This document shows positions 71 to 20,000 of a stretch of DNA of 20,000 bases, one piece after another; the stretch's first letter is position 1, and each line of letters begins with the position of its first letter. A program made the position numbers and the translations under genes. Origin of the DNA: Proteromonas lacertae (lineage: Eukaryota). The notes beneath the pieces were generated by a model that was not told the origin of the DNA, did not search any database, and saw nothing but the letters and a program-made list of their open reading frames with translations. The DNA is taken from contig NGBS01000334.1 of NCBI GenBank assembly GCA_002245135.1, positions 45,249-65,248 of the forward strand, read 5' to 3'.

Positions 71-1332
71 TTAACATTCATCATCAGAAATAATGATTAA
101 TTCATGAATTATTTGTTCTTTCTTTTTTTTTTCTTCTTCTTCTTGTTTTCTCCTAATTCTACTAGCTTCTACATCTCTAGTAAAGAAATGTATTCTTTTC
201 TTCTTCATTGTTACACTGATAGGATTATATATACTTTGTTGAACTTTATTATATCTCATTATCATTTTACTAACAATAGAATGTAAAGTATTTGTTTTAT
301 CTTTTGTAATAGTGACTTCACATTCGCCATTAATAATTACATTTTTTAATTTCAAGTTAATTACATGTGGTACTATATCTTCATTCAATTTATAATCAAT
401 ATTATGGATAAATATATTACAAAATGGATTAACTTCTGTATTATATATTCTATCATTGATATCACTTCTGAAATTAAATAAACCTTTATCATCTATATGA
501 AATGTATAATATATTATTTCAAATTTATTATCTTGTAATATTTTGTTGCTATAATTTGAATAAATATTTGATATATAATAATTAATTAATCTTATATTGA
601 AATTTAAACTATAACTATAATCATTATATTTATTTATAATAATATCCATTATATCTACTCCTATATTTGAAATAATTGAAAAATATTTCATCTGAATGCA
701 TTTCCTGACAGATTTGATATACACCAGATATGGATATATTTTATTAAATACTACTTTGCTATATTGAATAGATAAAATGAAATCCTCAATTAAATGCAAT
801 ATTAACATAAATTTATAATAATTAGCTGATATGCATTCTTTTGTTATTTCTGTATATGTTGTATTAATAAATGATAAAGTATTACTCTCCATACTATCTG
901 TAATATATATTAATGTTAAATAATTAACTAATTGTTTAATACAATAATTGCAATCTTCTTTTATTAGCTCAAAATCTAAATCTTTAATAGGATAAAAGTC
1001 ATGATCAACTAAAATTATAAATATATATGTAAATTATACTGTGATTGATATTACCTTCCCAATTTTCTTCTTGTTCTTCTTCTTCTAATACATTTCTTTT
1101 AATATCAACACACTTAGTCCCAATGGGACATTTTGATGGCACATGATCAGGCTATTAAAATTAAAAAATATAGTAACATATACGTTAGGACCTACTCTTA
1201 TAGCTGTAACAGTTTTGGAAGGATGTGTTGACATTTTATCTGAATGATTGTATTTCTATACAATTAAATTATTAAAAATAATACTTTCCCCATGTTGCAT
1301 CTTATACAGCAGGTTGGCTTTGTTCTTGCCAT
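71..1332 (-). CDS. Host hypothetical protein, spliced (at least 4 short introns)
   Basis: ATG at 1332 (MARTKPTCCIRCNMGK). GT-AG introns at 1256-1284, 1152-1183, 1009-1054 and 898-942 splice in frame into ORF 71..892. The C-terminus has a charged helix and ends ELIIISDDEC. No recognisable family. Confidence 0.7.
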
Positions 1333-1474
1333 ACTAGTATAGTAAAAAAATGATATAAAAATAAAAAAACGTCAATTGGGTTAATTTATTTTTGTTATTT
1401 TTTAATAACCCAAATTTTTAAAAACTTTAAATAGCAGTATATAAACAATTTAATAACATAGTAACAATATTTAT

Positions 1475-1750
1475 TTAAATAGTTTGTTTATATCTACCTA
1501 TCTTTGAGTTTATATTTGATTTGCGTTTCAAAATGTCATTAATTTCAATCTGACTTTTTAAATTGTTGATAGTTTCTTCATGAGCAAGACCTCTCTCTAT
1601 AATCTCATTCATATTGACTCTCATATCTGACAGCTCTTGTGAATTAGGTAAGCAATTGTGAGATTTCATATATTTCCACAATGCCATAGCTATAATATAG
1701 AGAATAAAGACTAAGACGCTTAGAAATATGTTAAAATAATCGTTTTCCAT
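1475..1750 (-). CDS. Small orphan protein, N-terminal transmembrane helix plus coiled coil (probably element-encoded)
   Basis: 91-aa intronless ORF; hydrophobic YFNIFLSVLVFILYIIAMALW followed by a heptad-like charged helix. Confidence 0.55.
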   Translation of the reverse strand: MENDYFNIFLSVLVFILYIIAMALWKYMKSHNCLPNSQELSDMRVNMNEIIERGLAHEETINNLKSQIEINDILKRKSNINSKIGRYKQTI

Positions 1751-1834
1751 TCAAAACAGAGTTTTTTAAAAGTAATTGAACAATTTAATTTAAAAAATTG
1801 AACAAAAAAACAAAATAAAACTATAAAAGACATA

Positions 1835-2473
1835 TTAATACATATAACCATTATTCAAACTATCATTGAATAGATTGTTGTAACTCATATAACATTCATC
1901 ACGTGCGATATCATTAATGCTATCAAGAGATAGATTGCTATTACTATTACTTTCTCTATTATTTAGAGAATAAAGCGTATTATAATTACTATTTATTACT
2001 TTTGATGTGTTTTTAATAAGTGTCTCAGATGGGATTATCTTCTTGACTTGTTCATTTAGATTAATTATCTTCTTTAATTGTTGTTGAATATTTTGTTGGT
2101 TTTCTATAATCCTTTTTTGACCCATAGTCCTCTTCTCTTTGTTATTAAAACTTCTAATGAATGATGATGATGAGAATGGAGGTAAATTGTTCTCATCTAT
2201 TGCGAATTCTTTACTTAAGTCTCTAAACCATAAGCCTTTTTTAAGCCTTTCTTCTACATCGCATTGATACTCTGGATCAATGTACTGTAGTATATATCTA
2301 ATTTCGTTGTATGTGAGTTCAGACTTCATACCAGAGATGTAATTATAAAGTTTAGTTCTAGTGGGAGATCTAATTTTACCATCATTTCTGAAACATCGCA
2401 TTATTATATGCTTATCTAAGTTATTCAAACATAGATTAACCTTTTTAGATTGCTTAGAATTTTCTACGCTCAT
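1835..2473 (-). CDS. Orphan protein (~212 aa), probably element-encoded
   Basis: Intronless ORF; likely ATG at 2473 (MSVENSKQ); helical N-half and N/S-rich C-half; divergent from the capsid genes. Confidence 0.55.
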   Translation of the reverse strand: MSVENSKQSKKVNLCLNNLDKHIIMRCFRNDGKIRSPTRTKLYNYISGMKSELTYNEIRYILQYIDPEYQCDVEERLKKGLWFRDLSKEFAIDENNLPPFSSSSFIRSFNNKEKRTMGQKRIIENQQNIQQQLKKIINLNEQVKKIIPSETLIKNTSKVINSNYNTLYSLNNRESNSNSNLSLDSINDIARDECYMSYNNLFNDSLNNGYMY

Positions 2474-2582
2474 TGTATAAACAGAAATTAAAAATATTAA
2501 ATTGTGCAAAAATGCTTATAATATTAATAATGCTTATTATGCTTATTTCTTCAATTTCGGTTACACATTTATATAAAAACAA

Positions 2583-3572
2583 ATGATTCCTTATGAACAT
2601 CGTACTTATTACCTTAATTCTGATATGGTATCTTCTGCTAATCAGTTTTCTACTAAGTATAAAAAAGTTTTGCATTTACCTGCATTCGATGAAGATTATT
2701 CTGACATTTCATTGAAAGACTGTGTTATTCCTAATAGTTTTCCTACTATACAAGAGGATACTAATGACACTTTCAGTATATTCATAGATTTACAAGTTAA
2801 TCCATGTTATGGATCTTATAAATTTGATAGAGATGAATTATATAAAGGAGTTAAAATACCAGAAGGTTTTTATACTCAAGATCAAATACTTAAGATTATT
2901 AACAATGTATTCAAAGATATTACATTAAAAGATTTTATGCCTTATAATGAAGAAGTATTATCAGAGGATGATAAGAATATGCAAATGTTTATAGGTGATG
3001 TATTTGAAATAGATGATAAAGATGATTTTCAAACTAATCACTTACAAATAGTTGGTAAAACAACAGTCTTATATGATCCTGTTAGAAGTAGTGGTAAATA
3101 TAGTTATCCAATATGTTGGATTAAAACTATTAAAATAGTTACTAAGGATTTAGCATATAAATATTTTGGTATATCAAAGAAAGGTTATTTTGATTGTTAT
3201 AATCCAGAAGGTAATATTAAATTTGAACCAGGTATGATTAAAGATAACAAAGAAAGATATATTGAAAGACAATTACCATTAGTTCAATTACCTTTCAGAC
3301 CTACTTTAATATGGGTTACTTCCATTACTATTAGAATGGATATAGTAAATATAGATCAAGATAGTCATGTTTTAGATAGTATTCCTATAACAAATCCTGA
3401 ATCAAGTTTTATCACTTATCAGAATTATGATATTTTTAATACTAGTAAAAAGTTTAATAATACTTATAGTAATGGTCAGATCATTTTGCAGATTACACAG
3501 CAAAATGGTTATGAGTTGAATTTAGATAATATAGAGTTTTGTATGAGTATTGTTGTTTTTAAAAGAACTTAA
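2583..3572 (+). CDS. Minor capsid protein (penton, single jelly-roll), Polinton-type
   Basis: Motifs resemble Polinton mCP: YYLNS...NQFSTKY...ISLKDCVIPNSFPTI, IPEGFYTQDQILKIIN, and C-terminal IILQITQQNGYELNL...MSIVVFK. Lies directly upstream of the MCP. Confidence 0.8.
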   Translation: MIPYEHRTYYLNSDMVSSANQFSTKYKKVLHLPAFDEDYSDISLKDCVIPNSFPTIQEDTNDTFSIFIDLQVNPCYGSYKFDRDELYKGVKIPEGFYTQDQILKIINNVFKDITLKDFMPYNEEVLSEDDKNMQMFIGDVFEIDDKDDFQTNHLQIVGKTTVLYDPVRSSGKYSYPICWIKTIKIVTKDLAYKYFGISKKGYFDCYNPEGNIKFEPGMIKDNKERYIERQLPLVQLPFRPTLIWVTSITIRMDIVNIDQDSHVLDSIPITNPESSFITYQNYDIFNTSKKFNNTYSNGQIILQITQQNGYELNLDNIEFCMSIVVFKRT

Positions 3573-3608
3573 TTAATTTCTTTTTAATCTATTATTTCTT
3601 TGCTTAAT

Positions 3609-4937
3609 ATGTCTTTATCTATTCCTAAAGAACAAAAACATGGTGTAGAGACACCTGTTATGCTTCCTTTTTATCAGTATGTAAAATTAAGTCCAGTTGG
3701 CTCAGCAAGTGATTGGACTATAAATGGGGATACATATACTCAAGAAATAAAGTTTGAATTAAGCGGAGATAACATTATTAACTTGTCTAAGTCTTACATA
3801 CAGTATGATCATGTTATTAGAACTACGCCAATTAAAAAAAGTGTGCAAGCATGGACTGGTGATGCAACTAGTAATATAGATAGTTATCCTAATTGCATAA
3901 AAGGATTAAAAGAAGGTTTTGGTATTGCTTCATTCAGAATATGCAATCAGACAGGTACAGATTTAGTTAGAGTGGATGATAGTTATGAACCATATCGTAT
4001 ATTTATGGATGAAATTGTTCGTAAGAGACCAGATCAGTATTATCAAGCAAATTATTATGATGGTATTAAATTGAAATGGAATGATAAAATTAAAGATAAA
4101 GTTATAGAAGATGAAGCTGAGTTTGCAATACCATGGAATAATAATAATAAAATAAAAAATTCTGACGGTGATCGTTATACATATGATAATGAGCCAGAAT
4201 TTAGATTACATGTTAAAATACCTTTAGGAAGATTTTATAATACATTTGCAGCAATGAAAAGTGATGTATTCTTTGCAGAACGTATGTATATATGTATTAA
4301 ATTCCAAACTATTGATAAATTTGGTCCATTTAAATCTTATGCTAATAAAGCTACTTTTAAAACAGCTGGCGATGCTTTAGATAATGCATGTACTTTTAGA
4401 ACACCAGAAGTTGTTGAGAATAACATAAAAATAGAAAATATGAGATTTTATGCATATTATAATAAAGATAGTCAATGCAATAACAATACTAAAAACTATT
4501 GTTTATCTAAACCAATACAATTCAATGATTTTAGATGTCATCAAGTTTCTTATAGTTCTCCTAATGGAATATTCAATTATAGTTTTACATTGAATAGTTC
4601 TAATGGACCATTTTTAAGATTTATTATTTATAGACCATGGGATGAAGACGATAGTAAATGGTTACGTATACCAGAAAATGCACAATTTAGATGGATGATA
4701 AACGACTTTGTTCATCAACCAGATTATGCTTTAATGCAATATTATGATAGTTATATGATGGTACAAGATTATTTTAAAGATTCTTGGTATGATGTTTTCA
4801 GACAAGATAAAAGTTTCAATGAGAAATTTTTCGAAATTTTAAACTTTGGTTCAAGAGATTTAGATAATATTAAGAATCAAGCAGGTAGACCTTTAGCTGC
4901 TGATTATAAAATCTTCTGTTTGCTTGATACGCTCTAA
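3609..4937 (+). CDS. Major capsid protein (double jelly-roll type), Polinton-like; possibly C-terminally truncated
   Basis: ATG at 3609. IKFELSGDNIINLSKSYIQY resembles the Polinton MCP 'IEF...DLSxSYL' motif; also LHVKIPLG...DVFF...MYICIKF; ~440 aa; adjacent to mCP. Confidence 0.8.
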   Translation: MSLSIPKEQKHGVETPVMLPFYQYVKLSPVGSASDWTINGDTYTQEIKFELSGDNIINLSKSYIQYDHVIRTTPIKKSVQAWTGDATSNIDSYPNCIKGLKEGFGIASFRICNQTGTDLVRVDDSYEPYRIFMDEIVRKRPDQYYQANYYDGIKLKWNDKIKDKVIEDEAEFAIPWNNNNKIKNSDGDRYTYDNEPEFRLHVKIPLGRFYNTFAAMKSDVFFAERMYICIKFQTIDKFGPFKSYANKATFKTAGDALDNACTFRTPEVVENNIKIENMRFYAYYNKDSQCNNNTKNYCLSKPIQFNDFRCHQVSYSSPNGIFNYSFTLNSSNGPFLRFIIYRPWDEDDSKWLRIPENAQFRWMINDFVHQPDYALMQYYDSYMMVQDYFKDSWYDVFRQDKSFNEKFFEILNFGSRDLDNIKNQAGRPLAADYKIFCLLDTL

Positions 4938-6212
4938 AATAAGCATTTCTATCTTGCGCTCTTTCTACTAATTCTAATTCATAATGCTTAAACCTCTGAT
5001 TACTAACATTTGGTACAAAGTTACCATTAGTATCACCTATTTGATAAGAAAATCTAAACTTATTTATAATCATATAAACATCATCACTCCAAGTAGTTAT
5101 TTTATCTAATTGTCTTCTTCTTTCTTTAAATCTAACATAGTCACCTACTTTAAATCGTTGTTTATCTTCTAGTTTAAATTCATTATCTACATTTTTATTT
5201 ATGCTTTCAACTAATACTCTTTTCTGTAGTAATTCAGAATGATATACTTCATTAGGAGTATATCCTTTTAATGCAGGATGAGGTTTATTATTATAATCTT
5301 GTACTACTTTATATACTTCATGATTAAAGTTAGTAAGCCACTGATTCATATATGCACTAGGTGGAAAGCTTTTAGCATGAGTTTGATTTCTATAACGAAA
5401 AGGATCAGGAAAGTCTATTTCAACAAGATGTTTATATAATAATTTTTTAACCATAGATACACTTCTATCTAATACACTCATTATTCTATGTTCTGAAGGA
5501 TTCTTTTGATAAGTATTTATACCTTCTGTATCACAAAATTCTTTTATTTTATTAAAACTATCATCTTGATCACTTAATATACTAATAACTCTTCTTTTAG
5601 CTACTATCTTAGGTTGATAGTTTGGATTTAAAAAGCTTCTTGATCTTCTTTATAATACCAAGAAAAGAAAGCATTTAAACAAGTATTTCCATCTTCTCTT
5701 TTCAAAGGTACTACCCATACTTTTCGAGAGTTAGTTTCAATAAAATACAGATGATGTGTTTCAGGTAAAAAATAAACTATATCCATCTGGAACCAACCAG
5801 GCTTTTTAATACTAACGAAAGGATTATCCTTTTTATACTGAAAGTCTACTATTTGATGACCAGGTTGTCTAGCTAAAAATTCTTTTATAGCATCTATAGG
5901 TGGTGGTACTTCATTATTATCTGCAGGATTCATTACCATTTTAATAAAATCTCTATCGCTTAGATAATGATATTTATTATATAGTTGTTGTAAACGATTT
6001 TGATATTGAGAATATTCAGGATTAGGATATAATTTATAGTCAGTAGTAGGAGGTTCTCTAGGTATACCATCTCTACCATAATTCGTATAATATTGCAATG
6101 ATTCAGGATATTTAGGTTGTTTAGGTAAATGTTGTATATTTTTATCCATTAAGTTACCTACATCATTCATAGTATTAAAAAATGCTTTAGCAGGATCCCA
6201 TCCGAAATACAT
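4870..6212 (-). CDS. Retroviral-like (rve) integrase of Polinton type, one 1-nt frameshift at ~5630
   Basis: Adding one T to the T-run at 5630-5634 joins ORFs 5628..6212 and 4870..5481. Motifs: WFQMD, IETNSRKVWVVPLK, ILSDQDDSF, SVLDRSVSMVKK, YNNKPHPALKGYTPNEV and the C-terminal FKVGDYVR...WSDDVYMI...YELELV domain typical of Polinton integrases. Confidence 0.9.
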
Positions 6213-6284
6213 TATTTTTTATTTTATTTTATAATATAAGAAAACAAAAGAAATAATAATAATATAAAAAGAAATATAAAAGTT

Positions 6285-9200
6285 TCAAACATTAGTAGTG
6301 TTATTAATAATAGGTGGATAATAATCATTAAAAGGAATACTATGATAAACATCTAAATAATACCTTTTAGAATCAAATATGCTGAAAGCCAACTTAATTT
6401 GTTCCATAGTATATAAAGTTTGGTTAACACTTCTGAAACTATATTGTTTGATTTTATCAAATCTGTAAGACTTTTCATCTTCAGCATCTGTTAATATTTT
6501 TCTATAAAAGTCAAAATCACAAGTTTTAATTCTATATCCAGTTGTAACACCTTTAGCTCTACTATCATGTGTAACAGAATGTATATCATCGTCTACTCTT
6601 ACTTTTTCATAGGCATACATTTTAGGTTTTAATCCTGCAAATCTAGTAATAGAGTATAAACCATTCTTAGTTTCTTCTATTTTTAATAAGTTAAGTTCTG
6701 AACTTTGATTAACATTTGAATAGTGTATACCTCTAGTTATTAAGTATTGTTTATTAAGATTACCAGTATCAACTTTCTTTTCAAAATGTGGATCGTTCAT
6801 AATATCCATATAGAAATCTCTAGTTTTAACCATAAATATGAAACTATCAGTATCACTCATCAATAATCTTAAACTACTCCCATATTTCCTATATAAATGT
6901 CCATACCAGAACTGAGCCATTAACCTTTTAGATTCACATAATATACTCATACCTATATAAGATGGTTTATCAATAGTGCATTTATATTTTTGAAATTTGC
7001 ATATACGTAAGTTACTATTATCTATAGCAATAAAACTTCTATAAAATGGATTGTAAGTACACTGCAAAAAGTCTTCTTCATTATTAACTAATTTGGAAGT
7101 ACACCTATTCTCAGTATTTTCACATGTCTTTCCATAAGCACTATTTAGAATAAGCTTAAAAGTATCAGCATCAGCATCCCTTCCTTCTAATTTAGCTTGT
7201 CTTCTTAAGTTATGATTCATCATTACAAAGTTATGTGCATAATTAGACTCTTTAAATCTGATAATTCTATGAATATGATGTATAACATAACCCATTTCAC
7301 ATGCAAATTTCAAATATTGATAGTGAACAACATAGTTGTATTTTGTTGTTAAATCACATACTATTTTAGGAACATTTGACTTTAACTTTTTAATTTTATA
7401 TGGTTTTATCAATATTATTTTTAACTTCTGAAACTAATCCTAAAGACTCTGCCCATTTCTTTTGTATTTCAGATAAATTATCATAGTCAACTATTTTTCT
7501 TTCAGGTAACAAAGGATATTCAGCAAATTTTTTTCTTTCATCACTATTACTAGGAGGAGAAATATCTACTTCCAGAATATATCCATACATATTTTTATTA
7601 ATCCATTCTGTATTATAATATTTTTCTCTTTGTTCTTCATAGTAATGTAATGATAATATTTTCTTTACATTTTCAGTAGTTGGTTCAATCCATTCAAATC
7701 ACTATATGGTAACTTCATACTAGCCATAGTACTTGGATATAAAGAATTATAATCCATATACATAATATATGTTTGATTATCTGGATCCTGTACTTCCTTT
7801 TTATTTTTCTCTTGCCATTGAGGTTGATAATGATTCCAAGACTCTGCATATCTCATACTACCAACCATAGAAATCCCACCTATTAATCCAGAATGTATAA
7901 AGTCATAAATATCAGAGTCACTTATTAAATCAATTTTTACATCACAATTTTTAAGGAATATACTCCAAGATAAACCAGGTGAACTACAATGCCATAATGG
8001 ATCTAAAGTAAAATTATTCCATATAACATCTCTAAAATGTTCAAATACACATGTTAATGTAAGAACATCTAATCTGAGATAAAATAAATTGTAGTCCATT
8101 AAGTTATCACATCTAATAACTTTCCATAAAGCCTGACAACTAGCATATTCAACATCTGTTACTGTATTATCATCTTTTAACTTCGAATAGAATGCTTCTT
8201 TAGGGAGGTAGTTCAAAAGTATTGAAATATTTAGATAATGAGTCCACATATTCATATGGAAAATATCCTTTAGATAAACACCATTTATGGATAAAAGCAT
8301 CAATATTCATATCATGATCCAATTTACCAGGAGCAGAATATTTTTTATAAATATCTTCATATACATAACTGAAATATTTTTGATAATTTCCATTATCTCT
8401 TTTTGCTTGAGTATATAATGACTTTGTTAAAGAATCTAAAGAACTTGGTAAGAATTGATAAGAGTCCATAAAGTATAATTTGTTGAACTTTATTAATAAA
8501 AATTTATTATCTGTTTTGGGTAATACTGATAACTGTGATTTATATTGTTTTTTGTTTTTATATTTTCTTATTTTACCATCTTTACATTTAATAATTCTAT
8601 AAGCAGATTGTTCATCTATTTCATCTATAACATCTTCTGCATTTCTAGGACTATCCTTCTTAACATTTCTTCTAATTCTAACAATGCATTAACTTCTTCA
8701 TTATTAATTTGGATTACTTCACTTTCAGCTTCTTGAGTTTCCATATCACTTAAAGAATCATGTAATGGACTCATACTGAAATTATTATTATCATCTTTTT
8801 CTTCTTGTTTTTCTTTTCTTAAATTTTTCACATAATCTTTTATTTTATTTGCTGTTATAAAGCCATTAGTATAAGGAGGTAATGGAGTAAATGTATCACT
8901 ATCTTGATGTGGAACAGGAATAGAATTAGTATTATCTTCTTCTTCAGTATCACTATCAGATTCAGTATCTGAAGCATAATTTACATTAGGATCAATATTA
9001 TTTTCTTTACAAAATTCATCTCTTAACTTATTATCCCATCTGGACAATCCTCTAATAATGAAATTATTGTCATAATTTTTGGAATGATGAGCAATACAAG
9101 GGATTGGCATATTATTTAAACATACATGGAAGTTGCAATTATTACATATTCTACCTATATATTGTCCACTAAAGTGGTCGTGGTGTAAAACAGGTTTCTT

Positions 9201-11151
9201 ATTCTTATTCCTATAATCAAATGGTTCTTTACAGTATATGCAATAATTCAATTTATTTTTAGGATCTTCTCTATTATATCCTATCATTTTTTCAGGATTT
9301 TTTAATTTTTCTTCATATAAATCTAATATTTCTTTTTGTATTTCCATAAATTTAGCTATTAATCTATCCTCTAAATCTGTTTCATTATCTTTAGGTGTTT
9401 TAAAATCATACTCAATTTTATTAGGATATATATTAGGATATTTTGATACAACATATAAACACCAACTGGATAATATATGCTTTGATAATATACCTTTCTC
9501 ATTTAAAATTGGATCTGTTACTTTCTCCTGATAAACTTCAGTATCCCAATATATTACTATAGGTATTAATTGCAGGGAAATTTCTTATAATACCTTTATG
9601 TTGTTGACAATTATATTTTTCATGTTGTATTCTTTTTTCATCTGTTGATAATAAAGCAAAACAATAATTACATCTAGGATAACCATTTTTACACTTCTTT
9701 CCTTTAGGTATTAATATTACATTTAATTTTGTAATAGTAGAATAATGTTTATCATTATATAATAAATTCACATGTGGATAATTATTGAATTTATCTATAT
9801 GTGTTACATATATAGGAACTACTTCTTTATCTGTTATTTTGAATATATTTAATGTTATATGATTTATTGTTTCAAATTCATGAATTTGTTTTTTATGTTT
9901 TATAGGATCTACTGGGAAATATAACATACTATAATTGTAGTTAACTCTAATATATTCTTTATATTGTTCTACTCTATTTAAATTCTTATTATTATTATTA
10001 CCATGAAAAAATGCTGCTGCTATAGCATATAGAAAACATAATTGATCATTTTCTCTATTATTATCTATTGATATAACACATTTTCTATTTCTAATCCAAT
10101 CTGGAAGTTCTTTATTTTTGCCACTACCTGCCATAGCAGTTGCTTTGACTAATTGAACTTCAACTTCACCAACATGTCTAAATTTTAAACTTGATTTTTC
10201 AGTATGCCATAAAGGTCCCATTTCTGTTCTTATTCTATCTTTTAATATTTTATGAGCTACATTCATTTCTGATTCTGTAATAACTACAGGTCTACATTCT
10301 AAGAATACCCAATTTGTAATTTTATTACCATTTGGATTATTATAATCTGGATCGTCTGCTCCTATATAACCACTTCTAAAACTTAATGTTACTTTTATAT
10401 ATTTAACATCTTCCAAATATTCTCTTATTTTAGTAATTAATGGACTACTAGGATCAGTTATAATTTCAACAACAGCATCTGGATCTTTACCATTTACATC
10501 ATTTAAAAAGTTAATTTGATATGTTCTACTATAATTATCTGTACTTCTCTGAATTAAGTCCATATAATATAATCTCTTTTCATATGGTAATTTTAATAAT
10601 TTAGTAGGATGATTTTCTAATATATCACTTGCTTCTCTTAAATCTCTTTCTTCTTGATAAGATAAATTTAAATCTGCTACTCTATTACGCTGTTGTGCAT
10701 TTGGTGGAGGTTGATTAACAACAACAACAGGTTGATTTGGATTAGGATTAGGATTAGGCATTTGAACTTGCATACCTCCTTTTCTTTGTATTTTTGGAGG
10801 ACTTATGTTTTCAAAATCTAATCTTCTCTTGGGAGGTGGTGTTACAAATCCTGGTTCAGGAATATTAATTTGAGGTGTTGAATCTACTCCTATATTTCCA
10901 GGATAATAATTAAAACCAGGATTTGTATTTGTAACTAGATTTCTTGGTGGAACATAATTTCTAACTACTGGAATATTTGGAATAGGTGGAGGCGGTTCAT
11001 ACATATTAGGAGGTGCCATACCTGGATATGGCATGGGCATGGGATTAAATCCATAATTTTGTGGAGGAGGAATATAAGGTGCTCCAAATGGTGGTGGACT
11101 ATAATAATTAAAGTTTGAATAATAATAATAAGGAGGGATGAAAGGGTTCAT
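6285..11151 (-). CDS. Protein-primed family B DNA polymerase (pPolB), ~1600 aa, interrupted by 5 frameshifts
   Basis: Fragments join across frameshifts at ~9573, ~8660, ~8204, ~7697 and ~7405. ExoI IVIYWDTE (in a frame not listed in the ORF track, ~9535-9560), ExoII AHHSKNYDNNFII, FMDSYQFLPSSLDSL, KGYFPYEYVDS, ExoIII YLRLDV, motif A YMDYNSLYP, motif B KLILNSAYGK, motif C SDTDSF, KPKMY. Confidence 0.95.
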
Positions 11152-11210
11152 CTAGAAAATTAAAAATTAATTTTTTATATTTTTATTATTATTTATTTAT
11201 TATTTTTATT

Positions 11211-11230
11211 CTTTTAGAAATTTCTAAAAG
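11211..11230. repeat. Perfect 20-bp palindrome CTTTTAGAAATTTCTAAAAG in the divergent intergenic region upstream of pPolB
   Basis: Directly visible self-complementary sequence between the pPolB start (11151) and the ORF starting at 11397. Confidence 0.8.
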
Positions 11231-11396
11231 TTATATATCAATTCTTTTACGACTTATATCTATTATTTTATATTATTGCTTTTTATTTCTTTCTTTTACT
11301 TGAATTGTATTATATTCTTTGGATCAGATTTGAATTGGAAGAACAATTTCTATTAGTAGTATATCTAATTAATTAATTAATTAATACCAAAAAAAT

Positions 11397-11870
11397 ATGA
11401 GTAATTTTGCTAGAGTATATGAATTCTATGTATTCTTTGATGTACTTAAAAATTATATTAGTAGTTTAAATGATATAAGTAGAAGGGTCTATAAATTAAA
11501 TCTAAGTGAAAATTTAAGTAGTAAAGATAAAACAGATCTAAGAGATAAAATAAAGTCTTTTGTAACTTTCATACAAAATATCGAATTGAAATATAACAGA
11601 AGTAAAATAGCAACCACATTTAACAAATCTGAATTAACATCTTATAGACTGGATATTATAGAAGACTTAGAAAAATTAATTAATAAACTGGACACTTTCT
11701 ATGTAGAAGATTTTGCATATATTTCTGAAGAAGATTTCAATTTGAATGCAAATACTATTAAAAATTTTAGATATATAAAAAATCATTATCTCTATTTAAT
11801 CGATACAAATTCAGAATTAAATTCTATATATAATATTTTTAAAACCAGATTGGAAGATGATAAAGACTAA
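11397..11870 (+). CDS. Orphan helical protein (157 aa), element-encoded
   Basis: Intronless ORF with an A-rich start context, divergent from pPolB; its stop lies 8 nt from the stop of the convergent reconstructed ORF. Confidence 0.65.
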   Translation: MSNFARVYEFYVFFDVLKNYISSLNDISRRVYKLNLSENLSSKDKTDLRDKIKSFVTFIQNIELKYNRSKIATTFNKSELTSYRLDIIEDLEKLINKLDTFYVEDFAYISEEDFNLNANTIKNFRYIKNHYLYLIDTNSELNSIYNIFKTRLEDDKD

Positions 11871-12021
11871 TTAATTTTTTATTTGATTTTTAACATATTG
11901 TTTAAAGTTGGTATTATTTCATTTAATTGTTTTTCTAATTCTTTTTGTAAATATTGACTTGCTTTTTTTTTTCCTTCTAATCTTCCTATTTGATGTAATA
12001 CCATATCATCTAATCCTAAAT

Positions 12022-12660
12022 TGTTGTTCCCCGTATGGCGGAAATCCCCGTATGGCGGAACTCTATATTGCAGAATGATTCAATCAAAACTAATATGATA
12101 TTCATGATGTTTGGAGTTAGTTATTAACAAATATATAGTTAGTTTGTCATATGACCTACATCTGTGATATACTTTTTTATGAACTTCATTATTATCAATA
12201 TTAAACTAATTTTTGTATATTTTCTATTTTAATGTATCAGTCACTACTACAGCCTAAAATACATTATCTGATATGAATAGAATACATTATTTTTAATGTT
12301 AAGGCGGTTAAAAAAGAAAAAAGAAAAAATAAGTTCAAGCCTCACTCAAGCCTACTCTTTAATTTCCTTTTTTATTACCTAAACAATAAAAATAATGTAT
12401 TCTATTCATATCAGATAATGTATTTTAGGCTGTAGTAGTGACTGATACATTATAATAGAAAATATACAAAAATTAGTTTAATATTGATAATAATGAAGTT
12501 CATAAAAAAGTATATCACAGATGTAGGTCATATGACAAACTAACTATATATTTGTTAATAACTAACTCCGAACATCATGAATATCATATTAGTTTTGATT
12601 GAATCATTCTGCAATATAGATTTCCGCCATACGGGGATTTCCGCCATACGGGGAACAACA
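12022..12660. mobile_element. Non-autonomous foldback/MITE-like DNA transposon, 639 bp, 283-bp TIRs, 6-bp TSD
   Basis: Arms 12022-12304 and 12378-12660 are reverse complements with about 5 mismatches; 73-bp spacer; ends TGTTG...CAACA; CTAAAT duplicated at 12016-12021 and 12661-12666. Confidence 0.95.
12028..12061. repeat. 17-bp tandem repeat x2 (TCCCCGTATGGCGGAAA) near the left transposon end; mirrored at ~12621-12654
   Basis: Directly visible GC-rich unit starting 6 bp inside each terminus. Confidence 0.9.
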
Positions 12661-12871
12661 CTAAATGATATTCTTCATTTAATTCTTTTAATTTTAATAT
12701 AATCTCACATGCTATTTTAATTGATGTTTGATAGTCATTGCTCCCATCATCTTTCTTATTGAGATATACATTACACATTTCATATAAAGAATCAAAACCA
12801 TTTTCTGCTTCTTCTTTAATTAGATTATCCATATATGAAATTAGAATATTCTAGAAAATGCAAAAATAAAT

Positions 12872-12958
12872 TATGACCTAATATGACATAGGTCACGTAT
12901 TTTTAAAAAGTTTGGTTTGGTGTGCCAGGAGCCCGAGTCATACGGCTCGGTGTGCCAG
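12872..12958. repeat. GC-rich structured segment, candidate right terminal region/origin of the Polinton
   Basis: Inverted repeat TGACCTA(12874-80)/TAGGTCA(12889-95); direct repeat GGTGTGCCAG at 12919 and 12949; hairpin CCGAG/CTCGG at 12933-12950. Host-like sequence resumes at ~12985. Confidence 0.55.
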
Positions 12959-13009
12959 AACCTTTATTTACTATTATTATATATAATACCAATTTTATAA
13001 CCTAAATAG

Positions 13010-13311
13010 ATATTGGAATGAGTATGAAAGGATTTAGAATGTTAATAGATAGATTAAAGTTTTTTAAACTCATAAGAAATTTGAATATATCAGGAAATGA
13101 ATTGAATGAAAAAGGATTAAGATTAATGAAAGAAAATGAAAGAATATTTGATGGTTTAAGGGAATTATCAATAACTGTAAGAGAAGGTGTAGATAAATTT
13201 GAATTAAAATCATTCTTAAAAACATTCTCATCAGTTAATACAATCAAACTAGATGGAATTTCAGAAGAAGAAAAGAAAGAACTATCAAAAGCATTCTTCA
13301 ATATTCAATAA
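13010..13311 (+). pseudogene. 3' exon of a host LRR-like gene lacking its 5' part
   Basis: IRNLNISGNELNEKG and LRELSI are LRR-like. A candidate acceptor AG ends at 13009, but there is no GT donor in the preceding ~50 nt. Confidence 0.5.
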
Positions 13312-13641: not shown

Positions 13642-15558
13642 ATGGCTGAAAGTACAGCAAAGGAAATGAGATTAGCAGGAGTTATTGGTTTAGATGGTAT
13701 TTTTTGATACTTTTTATATTTGTTAATAGGAACAAATCCCAAAAGCATTTTATACCATCCAGATGGTTTACATATTGTTTATTCTTTGGGTTCAACTGTA
13801 GTGATTAGAAATATAACTTCAGGAAAGCAAGTATTTTTGACTGGTCATACAGATCGTGTATCATGTTTCGATATTAGTAAAGATGGTAAATACATTGCCT
13901 CTGGACAAATCACACATATGGGTTTTCTAGCTATTGTTATAGTATGGGATTTTGAAAAAGCAATACAAAATGGAAATATATACGAAGGACCTCACGAACG
14001 AGTATACACATTAGAACTACACAAAGTAAAAGTCCAAGCAGTTGCCTTTTCTCCATCAGGTGAATTCCTAACTACACTTGGTGGTCAAGATGATAATAAT
14101 GTTGTCGTATGGGATATGAAGACAGGTGATGCAATCTGTGGTAGTCCATCTGCACCAGATACAAGTCTCTGTTTAGAATGGTATAACAATAGTGATGCAA
14201 TATTTGTAACATGTGGACATGGAGGTATAAGAATATGGGAGTTTGATCGTCCAGGTAGAAAGATACATCCAACTGACTGTATGTTAGGACAATATAAAAG
14301 AACATTCTGTTCCTTAGCTATTAGTGAATCAGATGAATCAATCTTTGCAGGTACTTTAACAGGTGATATATTAAGAGTAAGTGGTAATACTGCTAGATTA
14401 ATATGTGCAGGTGATAAACGATATTCATTAGGAGTTACATCATTAAGATCATATACATGTGGTTCAGGTAATAGAGCAATGGATTACTTAATGTTTGGTA
14501 CAGGAGATGGTATGATTGGTAGATGTAAGAGTTATGATAGAGAAATGAAACAAGAGTTTGTACAACAAGTAGATGGTGGTGTTACTGCTATTACAATAAG
14601 TCCTGATTTCAAGAAAATAATGATTAGTACAAATATGGGTAATAGATATGAAGCTCCAATAGAGAATATGAAACCAACATTGAAAGAAACATCTCATCAT
14701 TCTCAAATTAATGATGTTGCATTCCCACAAGGATGTTCTGAATTATTTGCAACTTGTAGTAAAGGTGAAATTAGATTATGGAATAGTCGAAATCGTAAGG
14801 AGTTATTACGTATTAGAGTTCCAAATCAAGATTGTTTATCTGTATTTATATCTCCAGATGGTAAATCAATAGTTAGTGGTTGGGATGATGGTAAAATCAG
14901 AGCATTTTATCCAGAAAGTGGTAAGTTATTATACGTTATTCATGATGCTCATCAAGAGGGTGTTACTGCATTAGATATGACTCAAGATAGCCAGTTTATA
15001 TTGAGTGGAGGAACAGATGGACAAGTCAGATTATGGAGGTTATTGCCACAGAAACAAAGAATGGAAGTGTCACTTAAAGAACATAAAGGAGGAGTTAACT
15101 TCATAAGAATCAGAAGTGATGGTTTACAAGCAATCTCTGCCTCTAATGATGGTTCTTGTTTGATATGGGATATGAAAAGATTCATTAGATTAGCTGCAGT
15201 ATATGCAAGCACTATGTTTAAATGTGCTTTATACCATCCAGATCATAGTCAGTTCTTAACTTGTGGAAGTGATAGAAAGATTACATATTGGGATGCTGTT
15301 GATGCTAATGCAATAAGAATAGTTACACCTAAAGGATGTGATAGTGAGTTGACTACTTTAGATATTACAGCAGACGGTGCTCATTTTGTAAGTGGAGGAG
15401 GTGATAAAGTGATAAGAATATGGGATTATGATGAAGGTTTTGTGGATATGGAAGGACATGGACATTCAGGAAGTATAACTAGAGCTGTCTATACACCTGA
15501 TCAGAAGAATGTAGTATCTGTTGGAGCTGAAGGTGGTATTTTTATATGGAATCTTTAA
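13642..15558 (+). CDS. CFAP52: Cilia- and flagella-associated protein 52 (WDR16), WD40 repeat protein
   Basis: Exon 1 13642-13696 (MAESTAKEMRLAGVIGLD), 33-nt GT-AG intron 13697-13729, then a long exon. Diagnostic motifs YIASGQITHMGF, LHKVKVQAVAFS, LGGQDD, ELLRIRVPN, SGWDDGKIRAF.PESG, GSDRKITYW, KIWDYDEG-like. Confidence 0.93.
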
Positions 15559-15690: not shown

Positions 15691-16736
15691 TCAGCATATT
15701 AAGCCATCTTCATTAATACTATATGTACAACTCATATTCATATTTGGCCCTTTTAAAACACTCATTTTAAACAAATTATTATTCAAATTCTCTAACAAAT
15801 ACTCTCTATCACTTACATAACTCCATATAACACCATTACCTACTTTATATTCGATTCTATTATCATTTGTTATATTACTAGTTGCTGCATTTGTTAATAT
15901 TATTCCTATATTATACCTCGAACTAATCTCATGAATTAATTGATTAAATACAATAATATCTTGTTGAACTAATGAAATAATAATAAATATATAATAATGA
16001 AAAAATACTGTTTTTATATTCATTATTTTCATATTGATTTGATAATAACAAAGGGTTTATACTATCAATTACAATTAATCTTAAACTATTATAAAATATA
16101 TTATTGTTTCTTTCCATATTGTTTATTACTGAAATTAAGAACAATTTTAATTCATTTAATCGAAATACTCGTTTTATTCTTATTGCCTCTAATAATTTCA
16201 TTTTCATATTAATATTCTAAAAAATTAATTAAAAAGTAATTATACTATATTTGTCCCTATTTGTTTGATTATTTTCAGTATATCAAAATTATTACTAGAA
16301 TCAATATATATCACATTTCCTTCATTTTTCATTACATTATAACATATCAAATGACAGAGACTGCTTTTACCTGTTCCACTTGATCCACTAAACTCATTTA
16401 CACAATTACTGTATATTCCATTATCTAATAGCATATCAATACTTTCTATATTCAATGGAAATATCACATTAACACTTTTAGCTTTTTGTAAGTAACTTAA
16501 TCCACTATTTGCTTTAATACTATACTTTTCTATTACATAACATCTTAAATGGTTTAACAACTACAATAGAAATATATGATAAACAAAAAATATACATCAC
16601 AAGATAAACCACTATTTTTACTTAAACTATCAATATTTCTTTCTAAAAACCCTTCAACTGTTCGAATTGGAGGATCTACATTCGATAAACTATTAATAAT
16701 TTTATCATCACATCCTATAGACAAAAGAGAAGGCAT
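15691..16736 (-). CDS. RAD51D: RAD51 paralog (RAD51D-like RecA-family ATPase), spliced
   Basis: IRTVEGFL N-terminal domain, IESIDMLLDNGIYSNCVNEFSGSSGTGKS (Walker A), VIYIDSSNNF, LRLIVIDSI (Walker B), IILTN, GVIWSYVSD. ORF breaks coincide with short AT-rich intron-like segments (~16563-16595, ~16215-16245, ~15972-16008). Paralog identity is less sure than the family. Confidence 0.75.
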
Positions 16737-16991: not shown

Positions 16992-19900
16992 TTACTGATT
17001 CAACATTCCAACACTTCCATATTCTATTGCCAATAATATATTCTTTTTCATTGTCTCATAATCACTATAAGGAGGTAAATCCACTAAAAAGAAACAAGTA
17101 TGAGCTGTTGGTAATTGAGATGGATCTCCAGCTTTTCTAATCTTGAATTTAGTTGCCCAATTATAAGTACATGGAATTCTTGTTACTCCCCATACAAAAT
17201 AAATCCAACTACTCTTTTGCTCTTCAGTCAATTCATTCATCACAATCAGAAATTGTTTATTACATCATCATCTTCATTATATCCTTCATATTGAGTGTTT
17301 CTCTTTAATGCAGATATATCAATTTCTTGACTTCCGCATATGAAATATTCTAATTCTGATACACTTAAGAAATATAAAACATTTTCGTGTATAACACTAT
17401 ACAAACCATCTCTCATTGAATCAATTTGTTTATCAAATTCATTTATTCTGAATTTATATATTTTATCTAACATTTCATCTCGATTTTCTAATGTTAATGA
17501 GATGTTTGATCCACCATCAATAAATTCTTCATATTCACCTATGAAATTAGATACAACACATTTCGTATCTTCATCAACTACATATGGGAAATCTTCATCA
17601 GAACATTCTTTAATACTGTTTATATAATTCACTATTATTGGATCAATAAATTCTAAATCTTTCATTGTTATATCTTCTGTTTTTCCTAACAATTTCTTCC
17701 ATACTAAAGGTGGGAATGAGAATGGTAATGATAAATCATATCTTAATGATATTCCCATCAGTATTCCAATGAATTTATACATATTTAATAAACTTGGACA
17801 TTTCCATTTAGGATATGGCACAAATGTACCTGTTTTTCCACAATTTAACATTAATTTCAAATTTGGATTGAATATACTACTTACAATCTGAGTTATTGAA
17901 TCTCTAAATAAACCACCAGCATCAATTCCTTCTTCACCTTTATACATAACAGTCATAAAGAATTTATTACATTTAAACAATTCTATAGGTTGATCTTTTA
18001 ATTGTAAATACGCTTGAATAAACATTGAATGACTATGTAATGGATTATCAAATACTACACTCTCTTCTTGTTTTGCAGCTAATGAATCAAATAATACTGG
18101 GAACTGGATTAATATCTACTGCATTCTGTTTTAAAATTGTGGATATGAAAGTAAATTTTTGTAAACGAGGTAATAGATAAAGTGATTCTTTCATTTGATT
18201 TCCTAAACAATTTGGATATTTTAATGAGAAATCTACTAATAAATAGAATATTTCCCATAATTGTATGAATTCATCAATTAATCTAAGTCTAAAATCTCTC
18301 AATAATTGTGGATAACTACATAATAATGGATATTTCTTCTCAAATCCTTCTTCTTGTCGGAAATGAATACCACCTCCTAGTTTATTGGCATTATAATATT
18401 TTATAATCTCTAAATCAGCTTCTATTGGCCATTTATGCATTTTTCATATAAACTTAATATCTCTTCTTTGTTCTGATTTACAACATTAGATAACTTATCT
18501 CTCGGGAATCTACAAATTGAATCTACAATTACTGAAATACCATAGTATTCTTTATCTGTTGGAAAAACAGCACCTTCTTCTTTTGTTATTGAGAGACTAA
18601 ATCCACTACATGTAGCTTTTATTATTGGTTGATATGGAGGTTTCACTATATGTTTTTGTTCTCCAATTTTTATCATTAAATGATATTTGGGTGGTAATCT
18701 AAAACGAGGATCAAAGAATATTCTACATTGCTCAGCACCAGGTATTGAATATGTGCAATTAAAACTATCATCTCTAATTGGATGATCAGAATTAAACTCT
18801 TTTACTACAAAGTAATTTTAAACCAGAAAGTACAGAAAAAATCTTCTGGAAAGTATTGCTGATTTAATCCTCTAAACCATAATGGTGCAAATAATAAACT
18901 AATTTCAACTAAATCTTCTTGTTTTGTTAAATCTTTTAATGGTTCAAATGAGAAGTTTTTAATGTTGGTTTTTCTGTTCTTATTGATTTTGTTACTTGAT
19001 TATTGATATTTTTCATATGATATAATATTTCAGCGAAATATTTATATCTGTTTGATAAGGCAGAGTTCTTTTGCATTAATATACTAAATATAGAAAATAC
19101 ATCAGATATTGGTTCTAAATCAATTGTATAATCAGATGGGAAAACGTCAGGAGATGATAGTAACAATAAAACATCTTAATACTTTCAATATTACCATATT
19201 CTTTAATTCATGGATTAATGATGTATATAACTCAATATTAATCTGTTTATGTTTATATATATCTATCATTTTACTATTAAACAATGATTCACATACCATA
19301 AACCCCATTTTCTATCAGGTATACTGTTTATATCATCTTCAGTTGTCCATTTATGAACTGGTAATTCTCTCACCTCAAATCTAAACCCCCATGTTTGTTG
19401 ATTTCCTTTTAATAAATATTTGAACCACACTGTATCTCCATCTATTACTAATGGAGGAAATACTCCATTATTACCACTATATATGACACTATTATTAAAA
19501 TTTTCATCTCCTGATAATAACAAATAACTATTTCCATTACTACCAAAATCTGTATTTAAATCGAATATAACTATCAATCTTTTTGCTTCATTTAAATGTA
19601 CTTTACCTGAATATGATACTGGCATTTGAATGGGATGTAGACTTTCTTTAATTACATAATTATCACTTATTGTTGTATAATCATTATCTTTAATATGATT
19701 CAATATTTGATGCATATTATATCATATAATCTATTCTGAAACTCTTTATCTTTACTCCACAAGATAATTATGAAATAGATTTGTTTCATATATTGTACTA
19801 TCAAGTGTATTATTCATTACATTTCCAATCATTAAACGAGAAAATAAGTCCATTATATAATCAGTAGGAGATTGTTTTATTTTAGCTATTAATCTTTCAT

Positions 19901-20000
19901 AAGATTTATCATTTGTCAATATATTTAATAATATTCCTTGTGAATAATATCTTTCTAATGATGAAATATAAGCGATTATTTGTGATATTGTTGCTTGTTT
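16992..20000 (-). CDS. Large HECT-domain E3 ubiquitin ligase, 3' part (continues beyond window); several 1-nt frameshifts
   Basis: YKGEEGIDAGGLFRDSI, YKFIGILMGISLR, VWKKL, ELEYFICG, FVWGVTRIP, LPTAHTCFFLVDLPPYS (catalytic Cys). Upstream repeats of the 'HP...IPGA / WGFRFEV' type. Frameshifts at ~17247, ~18100, ~18442 and further breaks upstream. Confidence 0.9.

Follow-up and report, generated by a model that had tools for sequence, protein, structure and literature searches.

The 20,000-nt stretch of the Proteromonas lacertae assembly analysed here (contig NGBS01000334.1, positions 45,249 to 65,248 of the forward strand; below, the window) holds an integrated Polinton-like DNA virus. The copy is probably defective, and it most likely belongs to the capsid family already catalogued in P. 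lacertae. The element is an intron-free block, with intergenic gaps of 11-245 nt, lying between a spliced host gene (minus strand, starting at 1333) and a leucine-rich repeat (LRR)-like host open reading frame (ORF; 13018). Its genes are ordered as two minus-strand orphans, two plus-strand capsid ORFs, the integrase and the polymerase on the minus strand, an orphan on the plus strand and, last, a small ORF that is split. The identification comes from four of these genes:

2583-3572, plus strand: minor capsid protein (mCP, the penton), 329 aa, intact; predicted fold, a single jelly-roll with an inserted domain.
3609-4937, plus strand: major capsid protein (MCP), 442 aa; predicted fold, a double jelly-roll; homology to the family extends to about 4913 and leaves out its last ~40 residues.
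4870-6212, minus strand: retroviral-type (rve) integrase, broken near 5635 into two frame segments; at its tail it continues antisense into the 3′ end of the MCP gene.
6285-11151, minus strand: protein-primed DNA polymerase (pPolB) in six frame segments, found by tblastn with the homolog P0113 and by Pfam DNA_pol_B_2.

The MCP has eight close relatives (32-67% identity), and a profile built from them matched 99 proteins at E ≤ 0.001, 13 of these at E ≤ 1e-30. Pfam matched 0 of 82 aligned members, the best E value against PDB sequences was 0.85, and the ESM Atlas gave clusters of viral hypothetical proteins at 0.96 with low recognition, which serves as a lead only. An AlphaFold model made from the family alignment scored well (predicted local distance difference test, pLDDT, 86.8; predicted template modelling score, pTM, 0.86). 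With this model, Foldseek found the MCP of Singapore grouper iridovirus at E 2e-9, BFVD gave similar results, and the Faustovirus MCP aligned over 370 residues with Z 19.0 (root-mean-square deviation 5.0). MCPs of nucleocytoplasmic large DNA viruses gave Z of 15-19 overall (PBCV-1 chains, 15.8-18.3), above those of the virophages (Maveriviricetes) mavirus (14.1) and Sputnik (13.4). Since identity to the structural matches is about 10%, the fold gives no closer kinship. As modelled, the product of 3609-4937 is a double jelly-roll capsid protein. In a tree, the window MCP and 12 further near-full-length MCPs form one clade (Shimodaira-Hasegawa approximate likelihood ratio test, SH-aLRT, 99); this was a quick version, using 24 of the 104 MCP matches and three putative MCPs from IMG/VR loci chosen by eye. 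DNA related to the MCP gene was found neither in IMG/VR nor in JGI metagenomes or GTDB genomes. Public assemblies hold at least three deep MCP subgroups (P0001-P0014, ~30-70% identity), a diversity that extends beyond this copy.

The mCP has eight full-length homologs (47-68% identity). Its model has moderate confidence (pLDDT 65.6), weaker than that of the MCP model. Foldseek gave 11 matches at E ≤ 0.001, which were mavirus and Sputnik pentons, adenovirus penton-base entries and one PBCV-1 capsid chain, with the mavirus penton on top (E 2e-6). A wide structure search (VIA) ranked two PBCV-1 chains at Z 8.0, Sputnik chain N at 7.2 and the mavirus penton at 7.1, with unrelated jelly-roll domains close by at 7.5. 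By its predicted structure, 2583-3572 encodes a penton with a single jelly-roll. A weak Endotoxin_C match on this protein (E 0.0067) was discarded, being explained by the shared jelly-roll fold.

P0113, an intact polymerase of 1673 aa, aligns to the window pPolB in six collinear segments running from 10968 to 6318 (47-74% identity). Of the five breaks between segments, four change the frame by a single base, and the one near 9573 lacks 14 codons. Because the alignment is contiguous across the breaks they are not introns, and tiny introns were ruled out as their source. All matches other than P0113 are at most 35% identical over the C-terminal segment, and a tree of 20 rows and ~400 C-terminal amino acids joins the window solely to P0113 (97/95) and assigns no Polinton group. 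As regards the TP and active vOTU domains that are fused to pPolB in Polintoviricetes, the N-terminal half aligns weakly to pPolBs of IMG/VR (E down to 3e-11), with candidate Cys and His residues picked by eye. A search of IMG/VR found no DNA related to P0113; our reference contigs from there with pPolB (L001-L013) mostly carry an rve integrase and ATPase as well. Two stretches of the window pPolB are common to P0113 and not evident in the other seven homologs: a Pro/Tyr/Asn-rich N-terminal extension (10700-11151) and an acidic insert of more than 100 residues after an endonuclease-VII-like zinc motif (8700-9020).

For the integrase, a profile was built from eight members at the IMG/VR polymerase loci, and for two of the eight Pfam confirmed the rve assignment. 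It matched the window at profile positions 71-123 (E 1.4e-5) and then 128-318 of 341 (E 2e-16). Since these segments are in order, the 194-aa ORF at 5628-6212 is the integrase front half. No DNA related to the integrase segment was found in IMG/VR, and none related to the integrase in plasmids.

A sequence-only reading of this DNA had proposed intron-free viral genes, with integrase and pPolB on the minus strand facing two plus-strand ORFs for single and double jelly-roll capsid proteins. Homology bears out this layout, the contiguous alignments agree with the lack of introns, and the structural matches described above (to the mavirus penton for the mCP, to the iridovirus and Faustovirus MCPs for the larger protein) support both folds. 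The integrase and polymerase genes are present as claimed but not intact, and of four ORFs listed as orphans, the 91-, 212- and 157-aa ORFs keep that status while the 194-aa ORF goes to the integrase. The phylogenies it called for yielded kin of pPolB (P0113) and of the MCP (the clade of 12 others), not a placement in a Polinton group.

Shared with Polintons/Mavericks (Polintoviricetes, as described in PMC11161782) are the full-length pPolB with its long N-terminal region, the rve integrase, the double jelly-roll MCP, the penton and the intron-free block. By analogy with Polintons, an intact member would have linear DNA copied by its protein-primed polymerase, would insert into the chromosome by means of the rve integrase, and would build an icosahedral particle from the MCP and penton if these fold as predicted. 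Unlike in Polintons, this copy yielded neither a packaging ATPase nor a protease recognisable as Ulp1, and it shows no normal pair of terminal inverted repeats (TIRs) and no target-site duplication (TSD) that could be called; its MCP has no Pfam match, and the C-terminal segment of its polymerase stays at or below 35% identity to all matches but one. Packaging ATPase is treated as core to both Polintons and Polinton-like viruses (PLVs) in the literature (PMC11161782; 10.64898/2026.07.28.741278; 10.64898/2026.06.19.733378). The earlier statement that the gene set defines Polintons was therefore right in calling the element Polinton-like and overstated otherwise, because this gene, also defining, was not found. 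We do not file the element in Polintoviricetes because this copy has neither the ATPase nor the TIR pair, though it would work like a Polinton. The PLVs described from the related stramenopile Halocafeteria seosinensis (10.64898/2026.07.28.741278) are alike in being endogenous in a host from Bigyra, in lacking a protease, in their pPolB and rve subtypes and in their many fragmented copies; they differ in that complete ones average 23.6 kb, with TIRs of ~485 bp and an ATPase.

The rest of the element consists of the following features:

1475-1750, minus strand: orphan of 91 aa, whose N terminus is predicted to form one membrane helix (hydropathy over 19 residues peaks at 2.6, at residue 6); family matches weak (E ≥ 0.005).
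1835-2473, minus strand: orphan, 212 aa, divergent from the mCP gene; no Walker A in a motif scan, and nothing below E 0.05 in Pfam, PHROGs or NCBIfam.
11397-11870, plus strand: orphan, 157 aa; nothing below E 0.008 in Pfam, PHROGs or NCBIfam.
11882-12832, minus strand: small ORF (~100 codons) split by a foldback transposon.
12022-12660, no strand: non-coding foldback transposon, 639 bp, with inverted arms of ~298 bp and TGTTG...CAACA ends.
12870-12975, no strand: probable right end of the element, with GC-rich repeats and hairpins and no clear left partner.

The ESM Atlas gave no usable match for the 212-aa orphan. Packaging ATPase was sought in several ways: a scan of all six frames of the element shows no Walker A motif, no ORF has a Pfam match to A32 ATPase, and ATPase profiles from IMG/VR match nothing in the element. 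No unassigned gap exceeds 245 nt. Pfam, PHROG and NCBIfam gave no match to an Ulp1-type protease, for which no dedicated profile was built.

Loss of sequence would account for the missing ATPase, and its site appears to be the point where the MCP and integrase genes meet. Alignments of the MCP to P0001 and P0002 end at residue 439 of 479, that is at window position 4913. Most close homologs (12 of 14) carry a C-terminal motif of the family exactly 20 residues before the end, the exceptions being the shorter proteins P0009 and P0012, which stop sooner; none of the six window frames contains this motif. In the model, residue 442 of the MCP corresponds to residue 384 of 436 in PBCV-1 Vp54. The MCP and integrase ORFs overlap by 68 nt in antisense where MCP homology stops, and we infer that a deletion fused the two converging genes tail to tail. 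This deletion near 4913 probably removed the last ~40 codons of the MCP, the integrase stop and the sequence between them, which plausibly included the packaging ATPase. Further damage would be the ~14 polymerase codons that are gone, the left end, lost or decayed, and the small gene split by the foldback. The compact layout stressed earlier is thus more likely due to deletion than to design. The sequence-only reading also missed that the copy is incomplete: the lack of an ATPase and of a TIR pair and the 639-bp foldback at 12022-12660 had gone unmentioned.

No long TIR links the two ends of the element; with no such pair to mark where it begins and stops, no TSD could be called. DNA of the right end is predicted to fold stably (z -3.1; 0 of 200 shuffles equally stable). 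Its best inverted match among 288 sub-windows of the 20-kb stretch is at 1371-1404, 37 gapped AT-rich columns with a score of 34 against 31 for the next, and may be a decayed repeat or chance. The position of this match bears on an unlikely alternative: that the family naturally has no recognisable ATPase or protease and is a minimal Polinton of ~11 kb, using other packaging or a helper's ATPase, with the MCP tail and the small lesions as the only damage. A decayed TIR at the left boundary would put the element near full length, its genes are tightly packed (gaps of 11-245 nt), and the contigs carrying close relatives are short, at most 9.4 kb. However, the inverted match excludes the GC-rich core of the right end and barely exceeds the next, the short contigs may just reflect fragmentary assemblies, the MCP breaks off precisely at its junction with the integrase, the likely deletion site, and the sources cited above treat the ATPase as core. 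We give little credence to a natural absence of ATPase from full-length copies.

Besides the deletion, the reading as a defective copy has to accommodate the frame breaks. No in-frame stop occurs in the nine aligned segments, of which the polymerase contributes ~1,590 codons. As judged by eye, four of the five one-base breaks fall in runs of at least three bases, compared with a background of 23% of bases. These five breaks are probably errors in the assembled sequence, because a nearby host HECT gene has similar ones (five frame changes between 19175 and 16995, 2.2 kb). One of the HECT changes is not an intron, since it lies between Pfam positions 219 and 223, and three others were judged by eye. 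The two larger losses and the foldback insertion are probably real.

Two further alternatives extend one of these causes to every lesion. In the first, the living cell has an undamaged locus, and mis-assembly of a high-copy repeat family produced every lesion, the MCP junction and the loss of the left end among them; this we regard as improbable. Losses of ~41 nt and >100 nt, the sizes of the two seen here, are atypical of long-read consensus errors, and a foldback insertion with an exact target duplication cannot be a consensus error. In its favor, one-base breaks also occur in a host gene, in-frame stops are lacking, a family of 285 copies is easily collapsed or mis-joined, and the MCPs in Table S3 of Bellas et al. 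2023 (PMC10120064) span 304-509 aa. In the second, which is just as doubtful, all breaks are real, the element is an old pseudogenised relic and the neighbouring HECT gene is a pseudogene too. A relic would explain why a single element has six frame breaks along with two larger losses, an insertion and a substitution in a conserved motif; against it are the stop-free polymerase alignment and the intact mCP, and third-position GC in the viral genes (0.09-0.17, with 0.26 for the 212-aa orphan) resembles that of host genes (0.14-0.16).

Several points weigh against our own preference for a damaged virus copy of the catalogued family. The ATPase deletion is deduced from this one copy plus protein relatives, not from the DNA of other copies. 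In leave-out tests on three groups of ATPases, the profiles recovered all 3 members of the first, one of the 7 in the second (at E < 0.01) and neither of the 2 in the last; because of this low reach, the absence of ATPase rests more on the lack of a motif and of room. One of the HECT frame changes could be a 19-nt intron; the flagellar gene CFAP52, also in the window, shows no break over 546 codons, so that the error rate would be uneven; and natural slippage favours base runs as well. Near 9085 the polymerase has His where P0113 has a conserved Asn of an exonuclease motif, which hints at some real decay. Lastly, the match to the published MCP given below was counted by eye and is not a computed alignment.

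The foldback is flanked by an exact 6-bp target duplication (12016-12021 and 12661-12666), carries a GC-rich 17-nt repeat in tandem at both ends, and looks young, with 3 mismatches in the outer 270 bp of its arms. Its flanks join into one stop-free frame of 101-102 codons with a visible stop codon, so the site that the foldback entered was a small viral gene. No DNA related to a 30-nt piece of its arm was found in JGI metagenomes. The arms were considered as copies of the element's right end, and this was rejected, since only AT-rich matches were found. TG..CA ends with 6-bp duplications are known from the prokaryotic IS481 and from some GingerRoot elements; TSDs of 6 bp are made by Polintons too (PMC10045372). 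The foldback is like these integrase-type DNA transposons, IS481 and GingerRoot, in its TG..CA ends and duplication; it differs in being non-coding and in its ~298-bp arms. A bolder proposal, to which we assign only a small chance, makes Proteromonas-type elements a separate, minimal, ATPase-less Polinton-like class (capsid, penton, pPolB and integrase) with hundreds of copies in an anaerobic gut flagellate, and makes the TG..CA foldback a non-coding satellite moved by the viral integrase.

The sequence-only reading had suggested that the element might belong to an undescribed lineage. However, Bellas et al. 2023 (PMC10120064, Tables S1, S3 and S4) already list 285 MCP copies in P. lacertae, and the representative printed in Table S3 is homologous to the window MCP, with 47 of 71 residues identical in four ordered blocks (13/22, 13/20, 10/16 and 11/13), counted by eye. 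Together these 285 make up the whole of a single 'new' cluster, which is thus private to the species; the clustering criterion was 25% identity over 30% of length. The cluster was estimated at 5.7 Mb, ~11% of a 52-Mb genome, and its representative was confirmed by ColabFold and Foldseek (PBCV-1, E 4.9e-9). With this cluster the window element shares a homologous MCP, the same class of structural neighbour (PBCV-1 MCP) and the same kind of host; it differs in that this copy is damaged. Five P. lacertae loci are drawn in Dataset S1 of that survey, whose main text contains 0 occurrences of Proteromonas. One 2026 preprint (10.64898/2026.07.28.741278) places the P. lacertae MCPs in a cluster distinct from the H. 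seosinensis PLV MCPs, and the main text of another, on a PLV framework (10.64898/2026.06.19.733378), does not name Proteromonas. Searches combining Proteromonas with Polinton, capsid or endogenous virus returned no account of gene content, although the Dataset S1 drawings or preprint supplements may show it. Within the literature searched, the gene content and ends of the family seem uncharacterised.

Host genes in the window include the following two:

13642-15558, plus strand: flagellar gene CFAP52, with a 33-nt intron (ORF 13918-15558, E 1e-148).
16992-20000, minus strand: HECT ubiquitin-ligase gene, with the five frame changes discussed above.

Flanking genes on both sides have GTA..AG introns of 29-46 nt (e.g. 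29, 33 and 46 nt), which agrees with the earlier view that the element sits between spliced host genes. GC content is 22-27% across the window and offers no contrast (element 0.262, right flank 0.271). Blastocystis has lost nearly all flagellar genes (PMC10690189), so the presence of CFAP52 makes the host a flagellate. Of the two hosts guessed from sequence, Blastocystis is thereby ruled out; a Proteromonas-like flagellate would be consistent with CFAP52, the 29-46-nt introns and the 22-27% GC. A motif considered as a host marker, TGTTTGTT, was dropped, having just 2 occurrences in the window and no enrichment in P. lacertae.

Three other host loci were noted. A spliced gene at 71-1333 (minus strand; introns of ~29-46 nt) has a long last exon with no Pfam, PHROG or NCBIfam match. 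The LRR-like ORF (12980-13311, plus strand; recognised by eye, with no family match) has an acceptor-like sequence in front and no GTA-type donor close upstream; it may represent the terminal exon of a host gene that the element interrupted, and the left flank shows no evident 5′ part of it. A spliced Rad51-paralog-like gene (15691-16720, minus strand; Pfam Rad51, E 5.5e-7) carries the sole Walker A motif of the window. No Rfam family was found in the window.

The gain for the family is modest: a penton, a polymerase, an integrase and a gene order are added to a capsid family that we found in print as counts, table rows, locus drawings and two preprint mentions. The family is wider than this one copy, as 12 further near-full-length MCPs share its clade. 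In the same survey the count cell for Blastocystis is empty in one row (PMC10120064), and by this comparison the Proteromonas family is a possible case of a viral load lost with genome streamlining. If full-length copies truly lack the ATPase, the family would matter more, because that gene is treated as core to all such viruses in the sources cited.

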